DNA of 17,089 bases. It comes from a bacterium (GTDB taxonomy: Bacteria; Eisenbacteria; RBG-16-71-46). Positions 1 to 10,274 of this stretch are shown here, one piece after another. Positions within the stretch are counted from its first letter, which is position 1, and every line of letters starts with the position of its first letter. The translations under genes and the position numbers were made by a program. The notes below the pieces were generated by a model. It saw only the letters and a list, made by a program, of their open reading frames with translations. It ran no database searches and was not told the DNA's origin. Location of the stretch: positions 1 to 17,089 of the forward strand of contig JAYWEM010000160.1 of the NCBI GenBank assembly GCA_043779265.1. Direction: 5' to 3'.

Positions 1-1196
1 AAGTCGTTGGGGTCGGTGGAGCGGCGACCCGGCGGGACGCGGGGATGGGTCTTGACCAGCACCAGGTGGTCGTAGAAGCGCACGGTCGAGACATCGGCGC
101 GCGCGACGAGGCGCCGGCCGACGAACCGCCTCGGCAGTGAGTACAGAGCACGGGCGACCTGGGCGTGCTGGTCGCGGGCCACTTTGGGCTCGCACCACAG
201 CGGCAGGTCGTAGCGCGTCGTGGGTGCCGGCAGCAAGAGCGCGCGCTCCTCGGCCTCGAAGTGCTCACGCGGCAGGCGCTGGGTGGTGCCATGCCGGTGC
301 ATGCCGTAGTCGTGCTCGCACCAGTGCCGGGCGTGGTCGCGGGACGGTTCGACATCGGTGAAGCGCTCGCCGGCGAAGCAGTCGTCGCGCACGTGGCGGA
401 CCGAGCGTTCGACGCGCGCCTTGTCGCAGGGATGACGGGCGCGGGTCGCATCGATGTGGAAGCCACGGGCCTGGGCGTACTCGAGGAACGCGCGGGTGAA
501 GCGCGGCTCGAGCGGATCGGCGTCCTGGACGATCGTCCTGGTGTTGTCCGGGACCAGCGTGCGGAACACGCCGCCGTAGAACTCCCACGCCGCCTCGCAC
601 GCCTCGATCGCGCTGGCCGTGGTCTCCGGCAGGCACGGGTAGACGAACCGGTAGCGCGACACGCCGGGCGTGAAGATCCATGCGCGCAGTCGCCGCCGCC
701 TGCCCGAGGCGTCGGGCTCCAGGTACGTCATCCAGCCGGTATCGACTTGAAGCTCGTCGCCGGGCTGGCCGTCCGCGAGCGGGATCGTCGCCACGGTCCG
801 GCCGAAGTCGAGTTCGACGATCGCGAACCGGCGCAGCGTCGGATACGCCACCTCGACGCCGCGGCGCTTGAGCAGCTTACGGATCTTGGAGAGCCGCACC
901 CCCTGCTTCAAGTGCGAGGCAATGAACTCGCGCTGCCCGGCGCACACCGCCCACGCATCGCCGCGTCGCCGGCCCCAGTCCGGCTGCAGCGCGGCCACCA
1001 CGGCCGCGACCCGGGCCTCGTCCAGCGGGGCGTCGCCCGCCGGCCAGGCTCCTTGCCCCTGCGCCACCCGCAGGTAGCGCCGGACGGTCTTGATATCGAG
1101 GCCGAGTTGCGCCGCGATCCGCTTCTTCGCGGTCCCGGCGCACCACAGCCTCAGGACTTCCTTGATCTCCAGCATCGTGACCTCGCGATAGCTCAT
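1..1196 (-). CDS. istA: IS21-family transposase IstA (3' end runs off the window)
   Basis: Manual translation from ATG 1196: MSYREVTMLEIKEVLRLWCAGTAKKRIAAQLGLDIKTVRRYL (HTH) ... ELQVDTGWM (D1) ... AWEFYGGVFRTLVPDNT (D2) ... HPCDKARVERSV (E) ... RHGTTQRLPREHF ... LYSLPRRFVG. The frame is open to position 1. AGGAGG lies 4 nt upstream. Not in the supplied ORF track because no stop falls in the window. Confidence 0.95.
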   Translation of the reverse strand, partial: MSYREVTMLEIKEVLRLWCAGTAKKRIAAQLGLDIKTVRRYLRVAQGQGAWPAGDAPLDEARVAAVVAALQPDWGRRRGDAWAVCAGQREFIASHLKQGVRLSKIRKLLKRRGVEVAYPTLRRFAIVELDFGRTVATIPLADGQPGDELQVDTGWMTYLEPDASGRRRRLRAWIFTPGVSRYRFVYPCLPETTASAIEACEAAWEFYGGVFRTLVPDNTRTIVQDADPLEPRFTRAFLEYAQARGFHIDATRARHPCDKARVERSVRHVRDDCFAGERFTDVEPSRDHARHWCEHDYGMHRHGTTQRLPREHFEAEERALLLPAPTTRYDLPLWCEPKVARDQHAQVARALYSLPRRFVGRRLVARADVSTVRFYDHLVLVKTHPRVPPGRRSTDPND

Positions 1197-1297: not shown

Positions 1298-1635
1298 CTC
1301 GCGACATTCTCACCGGTGAGGTGTGGCGCGAGCATCACCACCGCGCTCAAGTGCAGCCGACCATCCGCGATCGCATCGAAGATGGCCGGGTACAGGCGAG
1401 CCGCGCGAGCGGCTTGCCAGCGCTTGAAGGAGGAGTCCTCGGACATGTGAAGGACATGCACACAGTAGAGATGCATCGACGGGTAGCCGGCCGGCAGATA
1501 CAAGCGGCGGGCCTCGAACTCGGCGATGTGGGCCAGCAGATCCGCCGTCGCGGCGCGATCACGCACGGCGGCGGCGAGGAGTTCCTGACGTAGTACGTGG
1601 TCGGCAAGATGCGAGAGCGAGCGCATGGCAGTCAT
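1298..1635 (-). pseudogene. 5' fragment of a DUF222-like/HNH-endonuclease-family gene interrupted by IS21
   Basis: (MTA)MRSLSHLADHVLRQELLAAAVRDRAATADLLAHIAEFEARRLYLPAGYPSMHLYCVHVLHMSEDSSFKRWQAARAARLYPAIFDAIADGRLHLSAVVMLAPHLTGENVA resembles the N-terminal helical region of multicopy HNH-tailed proteins (recognised from memory). Protein-like sequence stops exactly at the IS end. Start is ATG 1635 or 1626. No HNH motif is visible in this window. Confidence 0.75.
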
Positions 1636-1881
1636 CCGCGGGGGCGAGTCGCGGGAGCACATGTCGTTCATAGCATGTGCGTTCGCGGCCGCCGTCCATG
1701 CGCGCAGAGCGGAGAACTCGGCTCATCGTGAGAGCGCTCTCGAGAGTGCCCGCGAACGCGGCATCCACGCCGAACGCGTGCGCCCTATCGCAAGGCAGTG
1801 GGCGGGCAGCGGCTTGGAGCAGGCACGCTCGAAATCGGCGTCAAGGGGAAATCGCGAATCCCCACAGAGCAGAGCGCTTCG

Positions 1882-2535
1882 TCAGTCGAGGTAGAGGCGC
1901 TTCAACCTGCCCCACGACTTTGCCTGACCGGGCAGCGGTCTGAGGCTCCCGGACGGCAGGGTCTCGTCCTCATGCCGCTCCACGAACCAGCGAGTGGAGT
2001 CCGACTGGCCTCGCGAGAGGGTGACGTGAGCCGAGTCCCCTCGCACCAGAAAGAACCTCGCGTTCCCAACGACATCGAAGCTCATCTGAGAGTCGCCCTC
2101 GCTCGACTGCACGCTCAGATCCACATTGGTGAGAATCGTCTTGTGCCACTTCGCCTGGCGACCGGGCCGCGGATCCGACAGTGGGATCAGCGTACGGCCG
2201 AAGACGAGCGCGACACTCGAGGCCGGCGGCAGCGAACCGCCTCCAACGAACAGATGCCGGTTCGACGTGGATTCGTGCTTCGGTCCCCAACCGACGATCC
2301 GGGACGTGTCCGCGAGCCCGAACACGAACTCGAAGTCATCCGTGAGCAGTTCGCGCAGTGCCATCGTGTCGCGATGGCTCCAGGCCCACTCGAGCCAACG
2401 CACCGCCTCCTCCGGCGAGTGCGCCACGCCTGGCGTCGGGACGGGCTGCGGCTGCACCGTCTCGGAGGCGCGGCCGCAAGCCCCCAACAAGAGCAGCGCC
2501 GCGATCGCGGGCAGGAGTCGTCTGGGCATTCGCAT
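1882..2535 (-). CDS. Predicted lipoprotein, possibly NTF2/SnoaL-like fold, with C-terminal SWGRLKRLY motif
   Basis: MRMPRRLLPAIAALLLLGAC is a signal peptide II with lipobox LGAC (Cys codon 2478-2476). A Pro-rich linker follows, then 'AWSHRDTMALRELLTDDFEFVF', resembling the NTF2-like N-terminal pattern. Start could be 2550, 2535 or 2529. Confidence 0.75.
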   Translation of the reverse strand: MRMPRRLLPAIAALLLLGACGRASETVQPQPVPTPGVAHSPEEAVRWLEWAWSHRDTMALRELLTDDFEFVFGLADTSRIVGWGPKHESTSNRHLFVGGGSLPPASSVALVFGRTLIPLSDPRPGRQAKWHKTILTNVDLSVQSSEGDSQMSFDVVGNARFFLVRGDSAHVTLSRGQSDSTRWFVERHEDETLPSGSLRPLPGQAKSWGRLKRLYLD

Positions 2536-2577
2536 GGTGGCGAGGAGCATGTCACGCGGCGCACTCGCCGCGGAAGC

Positions 2578-3438
2578 TCAAAGTTCCCGCCGATACTCCC
2601 CCCACCCCCGCCACCGGCCGGCCAGGATCGCGCGATACCTCGCCGCCATGCCCCAGCGCAGCGTCACGGCATGGAACAGCGCCGCGTACGCCGCGCGCTG
2701 CAGGTAGTGGAACCACAGCATGAGGAAGAACGCGTAGTGCTTCCGCCCGGCGTGCTTGCCGAACAGCGCGCCCCAGCCGCGGCCGTACTGGAACGCCCGC
2801 TCGGCCTGTGCGCGGGCGCCGCGGACTTCGAAGGGCTCCGGGTGGGTGACCACGAGTTCCGGCGCGTACCAGCCGTGCCGGCCCGACTCGAGGATACGGA
2901 ACAGCAGGTCGCTCTCCTCGCCGCTCGGGAACCGCGCACCCACTCCGAGGTCCTCGTCGAAGCCGCCGATCTCCGCGAGCACGTCGCGCCGCACGAACAG
3001 CCCGGGCGACATCACGGTGCGCAGCACGTCGTCATGCAGATGCAGCCGGCGCGCGCGCGCATCCGCCGAGGGCATGAGCGCGCGACCGGCGGGCGAGAGG
3101 ACGCGCGCGCTCACGAACGCGACGTCGGGCTGCGCCGCGATCACGGCGTCGAAGCGCGCGAGCACGTCGGGCGGCACCGTGCAGTCGTCATCGGGGAAGT
3201 ACACCCAGTCGCCCGTCGCATGCTCGAGCCCCGCATTGCGCGCCCGCGAGATGCCGCGCGCCTCGAGGCGCAACATGATCACGGCGGCCGAGATGCCCAC
3301 CATCGGCGACTCCGCGCTCTGGTCCGCCACGATCACCTGGGCGAATGCAGGATCGGCGGCCGCGAGCGAGGCGAGACACTCGTGCAGCAGCGCGGGTCGA
3401 TCGAGGGTCGGGATCACCGCCGAGACACGCACGCTCAT
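2578..3438 (-). CDS. Glycosyltransferase family 2 (GT-A)
   Basis: VSAVIPT, VIVADQS, GISRARNAG, DXD-type YFPDDDC, IGGFDEDLG, GEESDL. ATG overlaps the upstream stop (ATGA at 3438-3435). Confidence 0.93.
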   Translation of the reverse strand: MSVRVSAVIPTLDRPALLHECLASLAAADPAFAQVIVADQSAESPMVGISAAVIMLRLEARGISRARNAGLEHATGDWVYFPDDDCTVPPDVLARFDAVIAAQPDVAFVSARVLSPAGRALMPSADARARRLHLHDDVLRTVMSPGLFVRRDVLAEIGGFDEDLGVGARFPSGEESDLLFRILESGRHGWYAPELVVTHPEPFEVRGARAQAERAFQYGRGWGALFGKHAGRKHYAFFLMLWFHYLQRAAYAALFHAVTLRWGMAARYRAILAGRWRGWGEYRREL

Positions 3439-4511
3439 GCCATCACCTCGGCGAACAGCGCTTCGTAGCGCGATGCGACTTCGGCGGGCGCATGCTCACG
3501 CACGCGGCGGCGCGCCTCATCGGCGAGCGCATCGCGCCGGGCGGGGTCCACGGCGAGCGCGCGGATGGCATCGCCCATCGCGTCGTTGTCGCCCGCGGGA
3601 ATGAGCACACCTGCTGCCGGTTCCCCTTCGAGCAATCGCTCGACGCTCGGCCCGCAACGAGACGCCACCACGGGGAGCCCGCTCGCCATCGCCTCGAGCA
3701 GTGAGAGCGGCAGTCCCTCGGCGCGCGACGGCAGCACGTAGAGATCGGCCGCAGCGTAGCGAGGTGCGGGGTCGGGCTCGAAACCGGCGATCTCGATCCG
3801 CCTCGCGCTCGCCTTGGCCTCGAGCGCGGCCTTCTCGGGGCCATCGCCGACCAAGGTCCACGAGGTCATCGCATCGCCCGCGCGCGCCGCGATCGCGGGC
3901 ACGCGGTCGCTCCCCTTGACGGCGTGCAGGCTGCCCACCGTCAGCAACCGCATCGCGCCTGACGCACGCGGCGAGCGGCGGCCGGCGATCCCCTCGGCCC
4001 ACGGCGCATGCGGATTCGGCAACCGCACGAGCTGCGCCTCCGGCACCCCGAGCGCGCGGCTCGCGCGGGCAGCGCCCTCGGAGACCGCGACGACGCGCCG
4101 GGCGCGACGCATCGCCCAGCGCTGCCCGAGCCAGGCGAGTTGCGGCACGTGCTGGTGCCGTCGGAACTCGTGCAGGTCGGGGTGCACGATCGAGACGAAG
4201 GGTCTGCCCGCGCGCATCGCAGCCAGGGCCGCCACCATGCTCGCGGCCCACTCCATGCCACCCACGACCACGTCGGCCTCGCGCGCGGCCGCGGTGGCGC
4301 CCGAGAGGATGGCCCCCGCATGTGCCCACAACGAACCGTTGCGCGGCGACAGCGCGCGAGGCGGCGCCAGCCCATCGGGCAGCGCGTGTTCCACCCAGTC
4401 CTTGAGCAGCACCAGTCGAAGGCTCGCGCGATGCATGGCCGGAGCCAACACGAGCGGCAGGCGCTCGGCGCCACCGCCTCGGAGGTTGGTGAGGAACCAG
4501 GCGACTCGCAT
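3435..4511 (-). CDS. Glycosyltransferase family 4 (GT-B)
   Basis: N-terminal GGGAER; VGSLHAVKG, LVGDGPE, and DLYVLPSRAEGLPLSLLEAMASG (E-x7-E motif). Confidence 0.93.
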   Translation of the reverse strand: MRVAWFLTNLRGGGAERLPLVLAPAMHRASLRLVLLKDWVEHALPDGLAPPRALSPRNGSLWAHAGAILSGATAAAREADVVVGGMEWAASMVAALAAMRAGRPFVSIVHPDLHEFRRHQHVPQLAWLGQRWAMRRARRVVAVSEGAARASRALGVPEAQLVRLPNPHAPWAEGIAGRRSPRASGAMRLLTVGSLHAVKGSDRVPAIAARAGDAMTSWTLVGDGPEKAALEAKASARRIEIAGFEPDPAPRYAAADLYVLPSRAEGLPLSLLEAMASGLPVVASRCGPSVERLLEGEPAAGVLIPAGDNDAMGDAIRALAVDPARRDALADEARRRVREHAPAEVASRYEALFAEVMA

Positions 4512-4518
4512 CGCGTGC

Positions 4519-5244
4519 TCAGCGCTTCTCGGCGACCGCGATCAGATTGAACTCGAGCGGCGTGCGGATGTCCTCGCTCCCCAACTCGGCCACCAGGTAC
4601 AGCCGCCAGATCGCGCGCATCGCGCCCGCCACCCAGCTCCGCACGTGAGCCTTCCAGGTCAGCGGGCGGAACCGCTCGCCGACGATCGCGACCGGATTGA
4701 GATCGCAGGTGAGGAACGCCTGCCGCAGCGAGTGCTCCGAGTAGACCAGTTCGTGCGTCAGGTCGCGCCAGCGGAATCTCGAGGCCAGAGGCGACAGCGC
4801 GTTGGGCGTTTTGATCACCACGCGTCCGCCCGGCTTGAGCGCGCTGTGGCAGGCATCGAGGAAGGCGAGCAGTTCGTCTCGGGTGAGGTGCTCGGCGAAG
4901 TCCAGTGCCAGGACGGCGTCCAGTTGGCCCGGACGGGCCGTGAGCCACTCGATCGCCTCGGCACGCTCGACCGGGAGCCCCTTCGACTTCGCCACCTCGA
5001 CCTGCTCCTCGGAGAGATCGATGCCGATGACGTTGGTGTAGCCCGAGCGCTGCAGCATCGAGAGCGCATAGCCGATGCCGCAGGCGGCATCGACGATGAA
5101 CGCATCACGGCGGCTCGTCACATGAGGCAGTAGCAACTCGCGCAGCGCGGGCAGCGCCAAGGCGAACGCCGCCTCATCGCCGGGGCTCGTCTCGCCGTAC
5201 GTCGTCGTGAAGTAGCGCGAGTAGATGCGCTCACGGAATCCCAT
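4519..5244 (-). CDS. Class I SAM-dependent methyltransferase, probably glycan-modifying
   Basis: Start re-called to ATG 5244 (MGFRERIY), overlapping the flippase stop as TGATG. Motif I IVDAACGIG, then GIDLS, DFAEHL, LKPGG-x-IKTPN, DLTH. Confidence 0.88.
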   Translation of the reverse strand: MGFRERIYSRYFTTTYGETSPGDEAAFALALPALRELLLPHVTSRRDAFIVDAACGIGYALSMLQRSGYTNVIGIDLSEEQVEVAKSKGLPVERAEAIEWLTARPGQLDAVLALDFAEHLTRDELLAFLDACHSALKPGGRVVIKTPNALSPLASRFRWRDLTHELVYSEHSLRQAFLTCDLNPVAIVGERFRPLTWKAHVRSWVAGAMRAIWRLYLVAELGSEDIRTPLEFNLIAVAEKR

Positions 5245-6509
5245 CAGGCGGCCCTCCTGGCCGAGCCGTCGCGGATCGCGAAGGCGTAAAGCATCCATAG
5301 CAGAACATACGTGCCGATGGTCGCCCAAGCGGCACCCAACAAGCCGAGGCGCGGAATCAGCAACACGTTCGCGCCCAGATTCAGCACTGCCGCCAAACCC
5401 GCGCACCACGCGAGCGGTCGCTCACGTCCCGCTGCCACATGCGCCGTCCCGAGTGTCGAGACCACGAAGTCGAGCGGCACGACGAATGCCAGGACGCGCA
5501 GCACCTGTGCCGACTCGCGGTACTCGGCGCCGAACAGTGCCAGCACGATCGGCTCGGCCCACCAGGTCAGCGCGAGCGCGGCCACCACGCCACCCATCAG
5601 CGCGAACCCCACCAATCGGCCCGCGAGGCTGCGCGCCTGCGCCGCCTCGCCCTTCGCCATCCTCGCGAGCACCGGGAAGGCGGCGAACGTCACCGCATTG
5701 AAGGCGGCCAGCGGCACCTGGATCACGCGATAGGCGCTGCCGTAGAGACCGACTGCGCGATCGCCGAGGAAGGCCTTCAAGAGCAGCGAGTCGCCGCTGT
5801 TGTAGGCGAGCACCGCGAGGTTGGCCATGAGCAGCACGCCGCCCGAGGCGAGCGCCGCGCGAGCCGCGGGTGACGCGATCGTCTCGCGCCACGACAGCAT
5901 CGTCTCCGCCCGGCTCCCCTTGGGCTCTCCGTGCCGCACGCGCGCGAGCAGCGCGATCCCGATGGCGGCCGCGATCGCGCCAGCGGCCAGTCTCAAGAGC
6001 GGCGCCCACAGCAGGTCGTCCGGCGTCTGGATCAGCGCCAATGCCCCGATCAGCAGCAGCGCCGGCTGCAGCGCGCCCAGCAGTCCCGCCAGGTCCATGC
6101 GTCCGATCGCGCGGAACGCCCAGTCGGGGACCAGCGCCAGCGGCAGTGCGACAAGCAGCGTGCACGTCATCACCAGCCGCGTCGTCTCGGAGGCGGGCAC
6201 GAGCCAGGTCACCAACAGCGCGACCGAGACGAGAAGCGCCGTGAGCGAGGCGCGCAGCGCGGCGACCGTGCGCCAGGTGCGATGGCGTTCGGACTCGTGG
6301 ACCGCCATCTCGCGGACACCGTGGATCGACAATCCGAAGTCGCCACCCAGCAGCACGTAGCCCAGAACCGCCTGGGCGAACGTGATCAGCCCGAACGCCT
6401 CGGGGCCCAGATGACGCGCCATCCATGCGGTGGCGCCGAACAGCGCGATGCGCGCGAGCGCGTCGCCGGCGAGCAGCGGCAGCGACTCGCGGGCGATGCG
6501 GCGGATCAC
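5244..6509 (-). CDS. wzx: Wzx-type oligosaccharide flippase (MOP superfamily)
   Basis: 421 aa with many hydrophobic segments; ARHLGPEAFG, DFGLSIHGVRE, AVGLYGSAYR, LNLGANVLLIPRLGLLGAAWAT. GTG overlaps the trmD stop (GTGA). Confidence 0.9.
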   Translation of the reverse strand: MIRRIARESLPLLAGDALARIALFGATAWMARHLGPEAFGLITFAQAVLGYVLLGGDFGLSIHGVREMAVHESERHRTWRTVAALRASLTALLVSVALLVTWLVPASETTRLVMTCTLLVALPLALVPDWAFRAIGRMDLAGLLGALQPALLLIGALALIQTPDDLLWAPLLRLAAGAIAAAIGIALLARVRHGEPKGSRAETMLSWRETIASPAARAALASGGVLLMANLAVLAYNSGDSLLLKAFLGDRAVGLYGSAYRVIQVPLAAFNAVTFAAFPVLARMAKGEAAQARSLAGRLVGFALMGGVVAALALTWWAEPIVLALFGAEYRESAQVLRVLAFVVPLDFVVSTLGTAHVAAGRERPLAWCAGLAAVLNLGANVLLIPRLGLLGAAWATIGTYVLLWMLYAFAIRDGSARRAA

Positions 6510-7276
6510 GCGGGCGAATCCCCGGGCTTCGCGTGCTCGCGCTCGAGTCGGCGCAGGAACTTGCGATCGTCATCCGACAGCGGCGCGGAGGCGAGCAGGT
6601 CCGGCCGGCGCTCGAATGTCCGGCGCAGGGCCTCCTCGCGCCGCGCCTTCGAGATCAGCGCGTGGTGACCCGAGAGCAGCACGTCGGGCACCGTCCAGCC
6701 ACGGTACTCGGCCGGCCGCGTGTAGTAGGCGCAGTCGAGCAGCCCCGAGTGGAATGAATCGCTCTCGACCGAGTCGAACTTGCCCACCACGTCCGGCAGC
6801 AATCGCGCGAGGGCATCGACGACGCACAGCGCCGCCGGCTCACCTCCCGACAGGATGAAGTCGCCGAGCGAGAACTCCTCGTCCACCAGATGATCGGCGA
6901 CGCGCTCGTCCATCCCCTTGTAGCGCCCGCACAGGATCACCAGATGATCGAGCTTGGCCCAATCGATGGCGCGCGCCTGGGTGAACGGCCTGCCCTGCGG
7001 CGACGTGAGCACCACCTTGGTGCCGGGCCCTCGTTCGCCCTTGGGCGGCAGCCCGAGCGAGGCCAGCGCGCGGTCGACGGGCTCGATCTTCATGATCATC
7101 CCGACACCGCCGCCGAACGGGGAATCGTCGGTCGTGCGATGCGCATCCTCGGTGTGATCGCGCAGGTTCACGACGTCGATCTCGAGGCGGCCCTTCTCGC
7201 GGGCGACGCGGATCATCCCGTCGGCGAATCCGGCAGGGAAGAACTCGGGGAAGATCGTCAGCAGCGAGATGCGCAT
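6506..7276 (-). CDS. trmD: tRNA (guanine37-N1)-methyltransferase TrmD
   Basis: MRISLLTIFPEFF, DDSPFGGGVGMIMK, LTSPQGRPFTQ, LCGRYKGMDERV, SLGDFILSGGE, DSF, YTRP, VPDVLLSGHH. GGAGG SD 4 nt upstream. Confidence 0.98.
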   Translation of the reverse strand: MRISLLTIFPEFFPAGFADGMIRVAREKGRLEIDVVNLRDHTEDAHRTTDDSPFGGGVGMIMKIEPVDRALASLGLPPKGERGPGTKVVLTSPQGRPFTQARAIDWAKLDHLVILCGRYKGMDERVADHLVDEEFSLGDFILSGGEPAALCVVDALARLLPDVVGKFDSVESDSFHSGLLDCAYYTRPAEYRGWTVPDVLLSGHHALISKARREEALRRTFERRPDLLASAPLSDDDRKFLRRLEREHAKPGDSPA

Positions 7277-7292
7277 GCGGCCTCCACCCGGG

Positions 7293-7799
7293 TCAGAAGT
7301 CCCCGAACCCCGGCGGCAGGTCGAGCACCGCGATGCCCTCGACGAAATCGATGCGCCGGAGGAAGGCTCCGAACGCCGGCACCAGCATCTCGCGCCCCTC
7401 GACGTCGATGGCGAACAGCTGCTGGCCCGAGTTCAGGATCACATCACTCACGGTGCCGATGGTCTCGCCGGTCGGCGAGACGGCCTTCAGCCCGACCAAC
7501 TGGAACGTGTAGGCCTTGTCGGGCCCCGGATCCGGAAGCCGATCGGCCTCGATCCAGAGTTCGCCCGGCGTGAGCGTGCCGGCGATGTCGCGCAGCAGCA
7601 CCTCGGCGAACATGATCAGGAGTCGATCGTGCGTGGCGCGAACCGCGCGCACGGTGAGCGTGCGTCGTCGATCGCGGCCACGCCACTCGACCGTTCCCAG
7701 CGCCAGCAGCTCCTCGGGACTGAGGGAGCAGCGGTCGATGTAGATCTCCCCATCGAGCCCGTGCGGGCGGCCGACTCGAGCCAGCTGGACGAACCTCAG
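7293..7799 (-). CDS. rimM: 16S rRNA processing / 30S maturation factor RimM (probable CTG start)
   Basis: The ORF-track frame 7293-7652 continues upstream without a stop as LRFVQLARVGRPHGLDGEIYID (RimM N-terminal G-x-x-H-G-L-x-G-E motif). The C-terminal PRC-barrel region reads YTFQLVGLKAVSPTGETIGTVSDVI...EMLVPA...IDFVEG. It lies between khpA and trmD and is 168 aa from CTG 7799. Confidence 0.93.
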   Translation of the reverse strand: MRFVQLARVGRPHGLDGEIYIDRCSLSPEELLALGTVEWRGRDRRRTLTVRAVRATHDRLLIMFAEVLLRDIAGTLTPGELWIEADRLPDPGPDKAYTFQLVGLKAVSPTGETIGTVSDVILNSGQQLFAIDVEGREMLVPAFGAFLRRIDFVEGIAVLDLPPGFGDF

Positions 7800-8110
7800 T
7801 CGGTGATCTCCAGCGTGACGCGACGGTCCATGCGTGACGAGGCGGCGCCGAGCACCAGACGCAGTGCGTTCGCCGTGCGGCCCTCGCGACCGATCACGTG
7901 GCCCATGTCGTCCTGATGTGTCGACAACTCGAGCACACCGTCGTCGCCAGCGCTCAGGATCTCGCAGGTGACGTCGTCCGGATGATCGACCAGGCCCTTG
8001 GCCATGTGGATCACCAGGTCGCGGAGCTTGTGGTCGGTATCATCGGGGTCGCGGTGGACACGCGGGGCCGAGCGGGCGGCGGACGAGGCGGACGAGCCGC
8101 CGCCGATCAT
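7796..8110 (-). CDS. khpA: Single KH-domain RNA-binding protein KhpA (YlqC/UPF0109)
   Basis: LRDLVIHMAKGLVDHPDDV...DDMGHVIGREGRTANALR...RVTLEI with GxxG loop; canonical position upstream of rimM. Start re-called to ATG 8110, overlapping the upstream stop (ATGA). Confidence 0.92.
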   Translation of the reverse strand: MIGGGSSASSAARSAPRVHRDPDDTDHKLRDLVIHMAKGLVDHPDDVTCEILSAGDDGVLELSTHQDDMGHVIGREGRTANALRLVLGAASSRMDRRVTLEITD

Positions 8111-9117
8111 GCCTTCGGGGCGAGGGGCACGGACGATAGTCGCAGCCCGCTCCACACCAACAGCATCGTCGACAGGCCCGACAGCAGGAGCACCTTCAGC
8201 GGCTGCGGATCCTGCAGAATAGCGATTCCGGCGGCGCTGAGGACGGCCGTACTGCACCAGATCAGGAGAACGGTTCGGATCGGACATCGGAGGAGGGTCG
8301 CCAATCGGTGGTTGGAGTGGTCCTTGCCGCCCAGCCAGACCGGGCGGCCATCGCGCATGCGCGTCACGATCACGAAGATCATGTCGAACGCAGGATACGC
8401 GAGCATGAGCAGGGGGCCAGCTTGGCCCCACCCCGGGGGTGTCGCCCGGAGGGCGAGCAGCGCCGAAGCGCCGAGACTATAGCCCAGAAACAGACTGCCC
8501 GCGTCACCCAGGAAGATACGGGCCCGCGGGAAGTTATGGGGAAGGAAACCGAAGCAGGCGCCGGCCAGGGCCAGCTGGGCTGCGGCAGTCCCGTGGGCCC
8601 CCCGCTCGAGCGAGGTCCAGGCGAAGGCCGCCAGGGTCAGGGCGGCGATCCCCCCCACCATGCCGTTCATGTTGTCGAGGAAGTTGACCGCGTTCATCAA
8701 GGCGATCAGGGCCACCAGTGCCAGAACCGCCTCGATCCCCACCGGCAGCCCGAGTTCAGGGGTGACGCCCGCGGCGAGGAGCAGCGTTCCGGCCGCCGCC
8801 TGACCGAGCATCTTGACCGAGGGCTGCATGCCGAAGCGGTCGTCCCAGACCCCCACACCGAGCGCGACGGCCGCTCCCGTCAGCAGGTAGTAGGCCTCCC
8901 AGTCGGCCGGGGCCCGCGGCAGCACCCGGGTGGCGACGAGCCAGGTGATCAAGGCCGCCACGAACACGCTCACGCCGCCGAGCAACGGCGTCGCCGAGGT
9001 GTGCAGCTTGCGCGCCTCCGGGAGGTCGATGAACCCGATGGCGGTGGCGAGGCGCACGACCCACGGCACGAACAGCCACGAGAGCACAGCGGCGAGCGGG
9101 AATGCGGCCAAGGGCAC
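8107..9117 (-). CDS. WecA/TagO-like polyprenyl-phosphate HexNAc-1-phosphate transferase (MraY/PNPT family)
   Basis: DLPEARKLH...TPLLGG, GVWDDRFG, NAVNFLDNMNG, GFLPHNFPRARIFLGDAGS, KDHSNHRL, with multiple TM helices. Start re-called to GTG 9117 (GGAG 5 nt upstream), which avoids overlap with the epimerase. Confidence 0.92.
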   Translation of the reverse strand: MPLAAFPLAAVLSWLFVPWVVRLATAIGFIDLPEARKLHTSATPLLGGVSVFVAALITWLVATRVLPRAPADWEAYYLLTGAAVALGVGVWDDRFGMQPSVKMLGQAAAGTLLLAAGVTPELGLPVGIEAVLALVALIALMNAVNFLDNMNGMVGGIAALTLAAFAWTSLERGAHGTAAAQLALAGACFGFLPHNFPRARIFLGDAGSLFLGYSLGASALLALRATPPGWGQAGPLLMLAYPAFDMIFVIVTRMRDGRPVWLGGKDHSNHRLATLLRCPIRTVLLIWCSTAVLSAAGIAILQDPQPLKVLLLSGLSTMLLVWSGLRLSSVPLAPKA

Positions 9118-9145: not shown

Positions 9146-10144
9146 CTAGTCGGCAGCCACCTCGATGGGACAGGCGATGCCCATCTGGTCACACGTGTCG
9201 CGGATGGTCATGTCGAGCAGTCGATCGAGCGTGACCTGCGGCCGATAGCCGACGTAGCGGCGGATCTTCCTCAGATCCGGCACGCGACGGCGCATGTCCT
9301 CGAACGAGGCGCCGTACACCTTCTCGTACGGCGTGAACTGGATGGCCGAGTCACTGTGGCACATGCCCTTGATGCGCTGGGCCAGCTCGAGCACGGTGAC
9401 TTCCTCATCCGAGCCGAGATTGAACGCCTCGCCCTCGGCCTCGGGAGCGTCCATCAGCATGAGCATGCCGCGCACGACATCGAAGACGGCGCCGAAGCAA
9501 CGCGACTGACGGCCGTCTCCGTAGACGAGGATGGGCTCGTTCTTGAGCGCGCGCTGCACCATGCTCGGGATCACCATGCCGTAGGCGGAGGACTGCCGCG
9601 GCCCGCAGGTGTTGAAGCAGCGGACGATGACCATCGGCAGTTGGTACTGCTGGTGGTAGGCGTAGGCGAGGCATTCATCGACGGCCTTGCCGGCGGCATA
9701 GGACCAGCGCAGCTTGTGGGACGGACCCATCAGGCGATCATCGTCCTCGGCGAACGGCACCGTGACGCCCTTGCCATAGACCTCGCTGGTCGAGGTGACG
9801 AGCACTTTGCGCCGATGCAGATGGCAGGCCTCGAGCACGACCTCGGTGCCGCGGATATTGGTCAGCAGCGAGCGCAGCGGATGCTCGAGCACGTACTTCA
9901 CGCCGACCGCGGCCGCGAGATGGATCACCTGGTCGCACTGGGCGACGAGCCCGGCGACCAGAGCCAGATCCTGGACGTCACCCTCGAGGAAGCGGAAGCG
10001 CGGATGGAGTTCGAAGGTGCGGAGATTCTCGACGGAGCCCGTCGATAGATCATCGAGCGCCCAGACCTCGTGGCCTCGGCGCAACAGCTCCTCGGAAAGG
10101 TGCGAGCCGATGAAACCCGCTCCCCCCGTGACCAGGATCCTCAT
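9146..10144 (-). CDS. NAD-dependent nucleotide-sugar epimerase/dehydratase (extended SDR)
   Basis: MRILVTGGAGFIGSHL (GxxGxxG), IHLAAAVGV, TSTSEVYG, YAAGK (YxxxK), RCFNTCGPRQ, GDGRQSRCF. Start is ATG 10144 or 10150; SD spacing favours 10144. Substrate cannot be assigned by eye. Confidence 0.95.
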   Translation of the reverse strand: MRILVTGGAGFIGSHLSEELLRRGHEVWALDDLSTGSVENLRTFELHPRFRFLEGDVQDLALVAGLVAQCDQVIHLAAAVGVKYVLEHPLRSLLTNIRGTEVVLEACHLHRRKVLVTSTSEVYGKGVTVPFAEDDDRLMGPSHKLRWSYAAGKAVDECLAYAYHQQYQLPMVIVRCFNTCGPRQSSAYGMVIPSMVQRALKNEPILVYGDGRQSRCFGAVFDVVRGMLMLMDAPEAEGEAFNLGSDEEVTVLELAQRIKGMCHSDSAIQFTPYEKVYGASFEDMRRRVPDLRKIRRYVGYRPQVTLDRLLDMTIRDTCDQMGIACPIEVAAD

Positions 10145-10245
10145 GTCCATCCCTCGAGAGTCGTCAGTGGCATCCGTGCGGACAGGCGGGGCCAGGCCCT
10201 CCGAACGTCGAGGCAGCCTGCAGCGGACGGACTCTTCGGTGAGGA

Positions 10246-10274
10246 AAGGTAGAGAAGCGGTGGCACCGGGTCAA
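10246..10274 (-). promoter_or_regulatory. Putative sigma70-type promoter for the epimerase-wecA-khpA-rimM-trmD-wzx... block
   Basis: Minus strand TTGACC (10274-10269), 17-nt spacer, TACCTT (10251-10246), in the only large intergenic gap of the cluster (about 230 bp). Confidence 0.6.

Follow-up and report, generated by a model that had tools for sequence, protein, structure and literature searches.

The 3' third of wecA, a WecA/TagO-like polyprenyl-phosphate sugar-1-phosphate transferase gene of a bacterium of the Eisenbacteria lineage RBG-16-71-46, very probably acquired the promoter of the adjacent khpA-rimM-trmD cassette together with the start and N-terminal tail of khpA, following a rearrangement shared by the whole order. 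The genes lie in a window of 17,089 nt that makes up the entire contig C160 (JAYWEM010000160.1) of genome G000 (92% complete). A sequence-only reading of this window had proposed the order wecA, khpA, rimM, trmD and wzx. Pfam (PF13083 for khpA) and NCBIfam assignments agree with this order and place it on the minus strand, behind an NAD-dependent epimerase/dehydratase gene (epim; Table 1). The order comprises families f1-f3; loci of the window's own family were compared with those of f2/f3 and with those of other orders of the class (outgroup).

The start of khpA had originally been placed at the ATGA sequence that spans the wecA stop codon (8107-8110). The four letters are present but this assignment is likely wrong. 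ATGA is found at the wecA stop in 2/84 junctions, 22 in-frame junctions end with TAG or TAA, and several khpA genes of the family have no ATG, GTG or TTG codon until inside the KH helix. All 78 distinct khpA loci of the family carry an upstream Met followed by a conserved basic motif, a combination found in 0/10 f2/f3 and 0/11 outgroup loci. The motif lies 10-16 residues after the Met and consists of an aromatic-Gly-Arg sequence and a basic run, then a conserved Gly-Pro-Val. The Met codon is located 178-364 nt inside wecA in 66 loci (median 196); locus L087 adds an overlap of 367 nt. In the window, the family-wide start corresponds to the ATG at 8285-8287, which creates a 181-nt overlap with wecA. 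Approximately 60 codons would encode the last two predicted membrane helices of WecA and, in the -1 frame, the new tail of KhpA, provided that the upstream ATG is used in vivo.

Codon usage in this segment is consistent with a dual constraint. Within the overlap, the G+C content at third codon positions (GC3) of wecA goes from 0.915 to 0.79 and the differences at 4-fold sites from 0.47 to 0.31. The corresponding values are 0.96 to 0.97 and 0.37 to 0.44 in control wecA genes of the family that lack the ATG, and 0.92 to 0.92 and 0.50 to 0.47 in f2/f3 controls. Rare A/T-ending wecA codons are fixed at single positions required by the second frame. When WecA tails were recoded synonymously (13200 draws), the ATG appeared in 5.3% of the recodings, TATAGT (see below) in 0.18% and the basic motif in 0.05%, as against 66/66 overlap loci in which the motif is observed. 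A profile built exclusively from 12 tails that lie outside wecA (see below) scored the overlap frames at 38-85 bits, against at most 1.3 bits for the wecA genes of ATG-less family members, f2/f3 and the outgroup, and at most 36.8 bits for recodings, whose median was 9.4. Both frames are conserved in relatives, and the synonymous freedom of the older frame is reduced. The last two hydrophobic segments of WecA align with f2/f3 and outgroup orthologues and are found class-wide, while the KhpA tail occurs in one clade only; the WecA frame is thus the older of the two, and the khpA extension arose by overprinting.

A predicted promoter lies further upstream within wecA. In 60/66 overlap loci the ATG of long-form khpA is preceded, at a distance of 194 nt, by the hexamer TATAGT (TACAGT in 2), which is found at this site in 0/10 wecA genes without the ATG and 0/10 f2/f3 genes. 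Here it codes for Tyr-Ser, a dipeptide encoded in this manner in 3 of the 1217 Tyr-Ser pairs of G000. TAnnnT hexamers lead the strand-biased upstream hexamers of this genome, and one is present no more than 250 nt upstream of the epimerase gene in 76/76 loci, mostly between -85 and -120. TATAGT therefore likely acts as a working -10 element.

Twelve loci in which khpA and its tail lie in free DNA offer a natural test of these predictions. TATAGT is found in the spacer, 43-170 nt upstream of the free-standing khpA, in 10 of the 11 with enough sequence. In the exception (L072), a different A/T hexamer lies 6 nt before the ATG, and the khpA start is possibly leaderless. The old WecA frame is interrupted by stops in 8/11 free-standing tails, and tail GC3 is 0.86, as against 0.53. 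The ratio of nonsynonymous to synonymous substitution rates (dN/dS) in free tails is 0.08-0.39 in 12/12 pairs tested, all drawn from within three clades. The spacers of L085 and L120 still resemble the wecA sequence around TATAGT, which shows that they descend by duplication. By position, 8/9 wecA genes that precede a free khpA have lost both the ATG and TATAGT. In a 105-row tree built without the wecA overlap columns, the family forms one clade, the basal rows overlap and the free copies need 7 changes. Since L199 and L120 apparently represent a single contig, we count at least 6 origins rather than 7. A single origin was rejected (approximately unbiased test, p-AU 1.6e-7) with a 41-row subset that included 28/66 overlap, 10/15 free and 3/10 f2/f3 rows. 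The retention of the tail through at least six independent un-overlapping events suggests that it became needed. We consider it likely, from these comparisons, that the first 60 residues of KhpA, their start codon and their promoter were born de novo inside a membrane glycosyltransferase gene, that the basic tail is needed, and that the long form is expressed family-wide.

The upstream frame might alternatively be a by-product of WecA amino-acid constraint in a GC-rich genome, with KhpA starting near its KH domain and the free copies representing relics of duplicated wecA ends. The -1 frame is indeed naturally stop-free in controls, recoded WecA tails still reach the median score given above against the tail profile, and many public KhpA records are about 98-107 aa long. 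Relics, however, would not keep the tail frame while losing the WecA frame, nor would they regain GC3 and show dN/dS below 0.4. Such a by-product would also not account for rare codons fixed exactly at second-frame positions, or for family members that offer no conventional start until inside the KH helix. We regard this explanation as extremely improbable.

The KhpA product scores over the PF13083 cut-off at residues 89-161, displays the GxxG loop (in P0001, the window's long form) and is encoded in synteny with rimM and trmD. It measures 150-203 aa in 78/78 family loci and is longer than the KH domain alone; the family protein is for this reason considered a variant and not a typical member. 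Searching ESM Atlas gave no usable match for residues 1-85. A phmmer search with the tail against 1.84 billion representatives returned 6 matches, 4 of them family KhpA fragments and 2 tetratricopeptide repeat (TPR) proteins taken as chance. Judging from the predicted disorder and charge, the tail most likely adds RNA contacts or binds a partner. KhpB (Jag_N, KH and R3H domains) is present in G000 on contig C28. A link between gain of the tail and loss of KhpB was considered and rejected, as R3H is found in 35/36 family relatives. Separately, the query used gave no R3H match in 3/3 f2 genomes (G037, G039, G041), from which KhpB may be missing. Besides the short public records there are forms of 150-170 aa, mostly on short contigs; one of the long forms, P0041, matches an overlap locus, so that the long KhpA is evidently sometimes called by annotation pipelines.

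Both forms could also be made: the long KhpA, from the internal promoter, along with a short one whose translation re-initiates at the wecA stop, or else -1 frameshifting in the overlap could yield a fusion of WecA and KH. An in-frame ATG lies over the wecA stop in the window and in L063, a GTG does so in 23 further loci, and the frames permit the fusion. Yet the GTG also serves the tail as a Val codon, the stop of wecA shifts between 178 and 367 nt past the ATG, and free-standing copies have a clean start at that same Met. Inspection of the overlap, on which no formal test was made, brought out no conserved slippery site. This leaves the production of both forms with only a slim chance.

Several observations weigh against an overprinted khpA start and promoter. 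Neither a clear -35 element nor a Shine-Dalgarno sequence was found at the internal site in wecA, and the predicted leader is long, approximately 185 nt. The absence of stops cannot count as evidence, for the -1 frame is equally stop-free in all controls (0/10 and 0/10 with stops). The 66/66 match between Cys codon and ATG is true by construction, and the 10 ATG-less wecA genes are defined by lacking the Cys. The genomes are kin and not independent; un-overlapping amounts to some 6 events, of which about 4 left a wecA gene, and in 1 of these (L085) wecA retained the ATG and TATAGT, although its motif has decayed. AlphaFold, supplied with 77 sequences, gives a local confidence score (pLDDT) of 50-67 to residues 1-80, with 50-60 for the tail, as compared with 87-97 for the KH domain; outside the family, the tail lacks relatives that could hint at its function. 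Finally, the public protein record for the window is a short, 104-aa KhpA.

The position of khpA behind wecA results from an older event. Outside this order but within the class, khpA-rimM-trmD is preceded by rpsP in 11/11 genomes, the full gene order being ffh-rpsP-khpA-rimM-trmD-rplS, and wecA is followed by hemC and/or serS in 6/8 loci and by khpA in 0/8 (an epim-wecA-hemC/serS layout). Within the order (f1-f3), the first gene recognised behind wecA is khpA in 83/88 distinct loci, four distant non-family wecA loci having been excluded from this count. The remaining 5 are an insertion (L085), a different neighbour (L199), a stretch of masked bases (L088) and two contig ends. The rpsP loci of the order continue with hemC, a TPR gene or serS in 28/31 cases and with khpA in 0/31. 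Thus, by sequence comparison, junctions wecA|hemC-serS and rpsP|khpA were replaced by wecA|khpA and rpsP|hemC-TPR-serS. The new junctions are reciprocal: this order exchanged the two tails, and the ancient rearrangement set khpA-rimM-trmD directly behind the wecA-like gene. Where trmD and rpsP share a contig (8 family genomes), 24-87 kb separate trmD from rpsP, which is downstream and on the same strand. The simplest route would be excision of the segment between the junctions and its re-insertion downstream. The argument of the sequence-only reading against a chimera or a recent shuffle was borne out by these counts. A chimeric assembly of the window was likewise rejected, relatives having the same arrangement.

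Some loci depart from this layout. khpA is kept without an adjacent wecA in L072, L084, L117 and L120. In L072 (genome G020), wecA is absent from the locus and epim directly precedes khpA. The G036 assembly contains khpA-rimM-trmD twice (L117 and L120), each time with a free-standing tail, which reflects either a duplication or a mixed bin. Insertions within the cassette (wecA/khpA, khpA/rimM or rimM/trmD) are seen in L064, L083, L085, L093, L114 and L119 and include ABC transporter genes, wzi-like, yfhO-like and other genes. A Wzy-like gene and a family 4 glycosyltransferase (GT4) gene form a pair found either after trmD or inverted before the epimerase gene (L066-L070, L074-L082, L086-L090), pointing to repeated inversions around a conserved core. 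The trmD gene is in two pieces in G015 and G016, and a single in-frame TGA occurs in trmD of G056 and in wecA of G051; these are likely sequencing errors.

The sequence-only reading had described the cassette as lacking rpsP and rplS. Neither an S16 nor an L19 match was found in the window; for the genome the description is overstated, since L19 is encoded on contig C108 of G000 and the failure to match S16 anywhere in G000 reflects an assembly gap. The ffh gene is broken at residue 427 of 442 by the last base of contig C113, rpsP lies approximately 60 nt after ffh in both same-genus genomes, and serS and other genes trailing rpsP in relatives are also missing from G000. Loss of rpsP was rejected on the same grounds, the gene being present in 59/61 genomes searched. 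As for rplS, the two halves of an HNH-type repeated gene are found at the end of C160 and upstream of rplS on C108 (L062 7408-8280), suggesting that rplS follows the left end of the window. The HNH-type gene and the IS21-like piece at the contig end are present in several copies in G000. Next to the HNH-type gene, the end of C108 carries an argC fragment on the opposite strand (L062 8246-8878) with a foreign-looking codon style; this contig end is possibly chimeric.

The interval between trmD and rplS is variable. Among 34 family genomes with a visible gene after trmD (two contig ends and one genome without a trmD match were excluded), 5 have rplS there, 10 a hypothetical or other gene with rplS behind it, and 19 a glycan-type gene. 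Depending on the genome, the occupant is rplS itself or a hypothetical, Wzy-like, DegT, glycosyltransferase or flippase gene, the last in 3/34 genomes, all from the window's genus. In f2/f3, rplS directly follows trmD in 11/11 genomes. In 5/5 long-contig genomes tested that have a Wzy-like gene after trmD, rplS is found 11-16 kb further on the same strand. A TATA[ACG]T hexamer lies 61-92 nt before rplS in 26/27 family loci and in 0/11 f2/f3 loci; it is likely that rplS acquired a promoter of its own and that the gap turned into an insertion site. The family would thus run three units, beginning with ffh-rpsP, with a promoter and khpA-rimM-trmD, and with a promoter and rplS, and the freed trmD-rplS gap would admit variable glycan genes hitch-hiking on a housekeeping promoter.

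These data bear on the functional interpretation first given to the locus, in which epim-wecA-khpA-rimM-trmD-wzx forms one translationally coupled operon, selected to match glycan synthesis to ribosome maturation and with KhpA starting at the ATGA. The order-wide wecA-khpA adjacency and the glycan-type genes after trmD, often joined by a 4-nt overlap, fit this model. The minus strand of the window contains no terminator-like site, and read-through from the epim promoter is possible. A predicted common transcript for trmD and wzx is probable in this genus, in view of their own 4-nt overlap and the absence of a terminator match. However, the ATGA is rare at wecA stops, the predicted promoter and start of khpA lie inside wecA, the gene after trmD is variable (and invariably rplS in f2/f3), and khpA persists in four loci without an adjacent wecA. 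Nor are the short overlaps special: the CTGA (7796-7799) and GTGA (6506-6509) are present, like the ATGA, at their junctions, but 466/2027 co-directional neighbour pairs of G000 (23%, with our own gene caller) overlap by 4 nt. The gene order proposed originally is real, dates far back and extends across the order; the case for coupling is weak, and we hold the coupled operon to be very improbable.

The khpA-rimM-trmD cassette is a known association: khpA is described as syntenic with rimM/trmD in passages of 10.1101/2023.10.30.564711, and the three genes stay together both in the canonical (ffh)-rpsP-khpA-rimM-trmD-rplS operon and in the window's family. The family departs from the canonical operon in that rpsP stands before khpA in 0/31 loci and rplS directly after trmD in 5/34 genomes; the cassette is split from ffh-rpsP by the reciprocal swap with epim-wecA|hemC-serS and parted from rplS by variable inserts, each part having its own predicted promoter. 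KhpA (PF13083) is presented as a small single-KH protein in the relevant part of PMC11261784. The family form resembles the described proteins in its KH_KhpA-B domain, GxxG loop, synteny and the presence of KhpB/Jag in the genome, and differs from them in its length, which is roughly double, and in an N-terminal tail that occurs in this family only; passages of a KhpA review do not mention an N-terminal extension.

In Thermus, RnpA reportedly gains an N-terminal extension through an overlap with rpmH. This same-strand overlap, as cited in a portion of PMC9841429, is the nearest known case. Here too, the frame of an RNA-binding protein extends over a housekeeping gene that adjoins it on the same strand. 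In Thermus, rpmH is fully nested and both starts share one initiation site, whereas the family overlap is tail-to-head, is associated with a predicted promoter in the upstream gene, spans the last helices of a membrane enzyme and was undone at least 6 times. In the sections of PMC2478687 that deal with the matter, no real case was recognised among 715 co-directional overlaps of more than 60 bp in 338 genomes. The khpA overlap resembles class (i) of that survey, as defined there, in that the downstream gene is 5'-extended relative to distant orthologues; it differs from the overlaps treated there in its length (178-367 nt), family-wide occurrence, dual constraint and natural un-overlapped controls. 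Elongation at the 5' end is given in part of PMC3887535 as the rarer origin of such overlaps. Overprinting of a promoter, start and tail of khpA in wecA, as predicted here, is of a known but very rare kind; a literature search with incomplete coverage, supplements left out, returned no report of this overlap or rearrangement.

Bacteroides is said to have a metG-linked O-glycosylation locus with glycan genes downstream of a translation gene. As in that arrangement, the window has glycan genes downstream of a translation gene, with which they are likely co-transcribed; unlike it, the set of glycan genes at this downstream site changes from genus to genus, and many relatives have none there.

In bacteria, long overlaps between co-directional genes are commonly put down to faulty annotation, and the public protein record for the window is itself truncated. 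Conservation of the khpA/wecA overlap extends over a family; one of the frames is clearly the older, a promoter is predicted to lie buried in wecA, and un-overlapped controls recur, in which it is visible whether each function retains or drops its sequence. It makes testable the origin, fixation and later release of a new coding sequence from dual constraint, as well as the contribution of a disordered basic tail to the KhpA RNA chaperone. If the interpretation is correct, the locus would serve as a natural experiment, both dated and replicated, on how overprinting proceeds in a cellular chromosome, and KhpA would carry a new RNA-contacting module. In addition, the two swapped junctions supply a clean gene-order marker for the order.

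Table 1. Features of the window, from the 5' side of the epimerase gene to the contig end.
Feature	Position	Strand	Remarks
Promoter-like site, 5' of epimerase gene	10246..10274	-	-35-like hexamer, 17-nt spacer, -10-like hexamer
NAD-dependent epimerase/dehydratase	9146..10150	-	Class-wide conserved partner upstream of wecA
WecA/TagO-like polyprenyl-phosphate sugar-1-phosphate transferase	8107..9117	-	PF00953; ancestral frame of the overlap
TATAGT, -10-like hexamer from Tyr-Ser codons of wecA	8476..8481	-	Predicted internal promoter of khpA-rimM-trmD
khpA long form (P0001), 163 aa	7796..8287	-	N-terminal part of ~85 residues, predicted disordered, with basic motif; then KH, 89-161
Dual-coding overlap, 181 nt	8107..8287	-	Final 60 wecA codons; opening 60 khpA codons (-1 frame)
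rimM	7293..7799	-	TIGR02273 over cut-off; likely CTG start at 7797-7799
trmD, single copy in G000	6506..7276	-	TIGR00088 over cut-off
Wzx-like flippase (PF01943)	5244..6509	-	4-nt overlap with trmD; genus-level occupant of variable trmD-rplS insertion site
Methyltransferase, GT4, family 2 glycosyltransferase (GT2), hypothetical hyp16	1882..5244	-	hyp16 just before rplS in relatives
HNH-type repeated gene, N-terminal part	1316..1689	-	Matching C-terminal part upstream of rplS on C108
IS21-like transposase fragment	3..1196	-	Contig end

The first site in Table 1 is likely the promoter of epim-wecA. A strict sigma-70 scan requiring both hexamers identified no promoter in the window, this site included. 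The wecA product meets PF00953 but scores 116.9 bits against a cut-off of 326 for TIGR02380 (WecA of enterobacterial common antigen synthesis); for this reason its gene is labelled WecA/TagO-like only. A second, distant WecA-like paralogue (32-36% identity) is encoded elsewhere in G000 (C66 1339-2280). The surroundings are those of a Wzx/Wzy-dependent cluster, with matches to PF00953, PF00534/PF00535, PF01943 and PF04932 and weak GNVR/Wzz-like matches nearby. Contigs from two sequencing runs, which are possibly the source of the assembly and not independent of it, cover positions 1602-8273 without a difference. A check for a second trmD, suggested by the sequence-only reading, confirmed the single copy. 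In rimM of the window, no ATG, GTG or TTG precedes the conserved N-terminal motif, making the CTG the likely start. Such a start codon is lacking from rimM in 27/75 family loci scored (the window and L063-L208); CTG at the khpA stop (19) or ATT (5) is found instead, mostly where other members carry ATG. One may speculate that the weak starts tune RimM down or render it sensitive to 30S quality.

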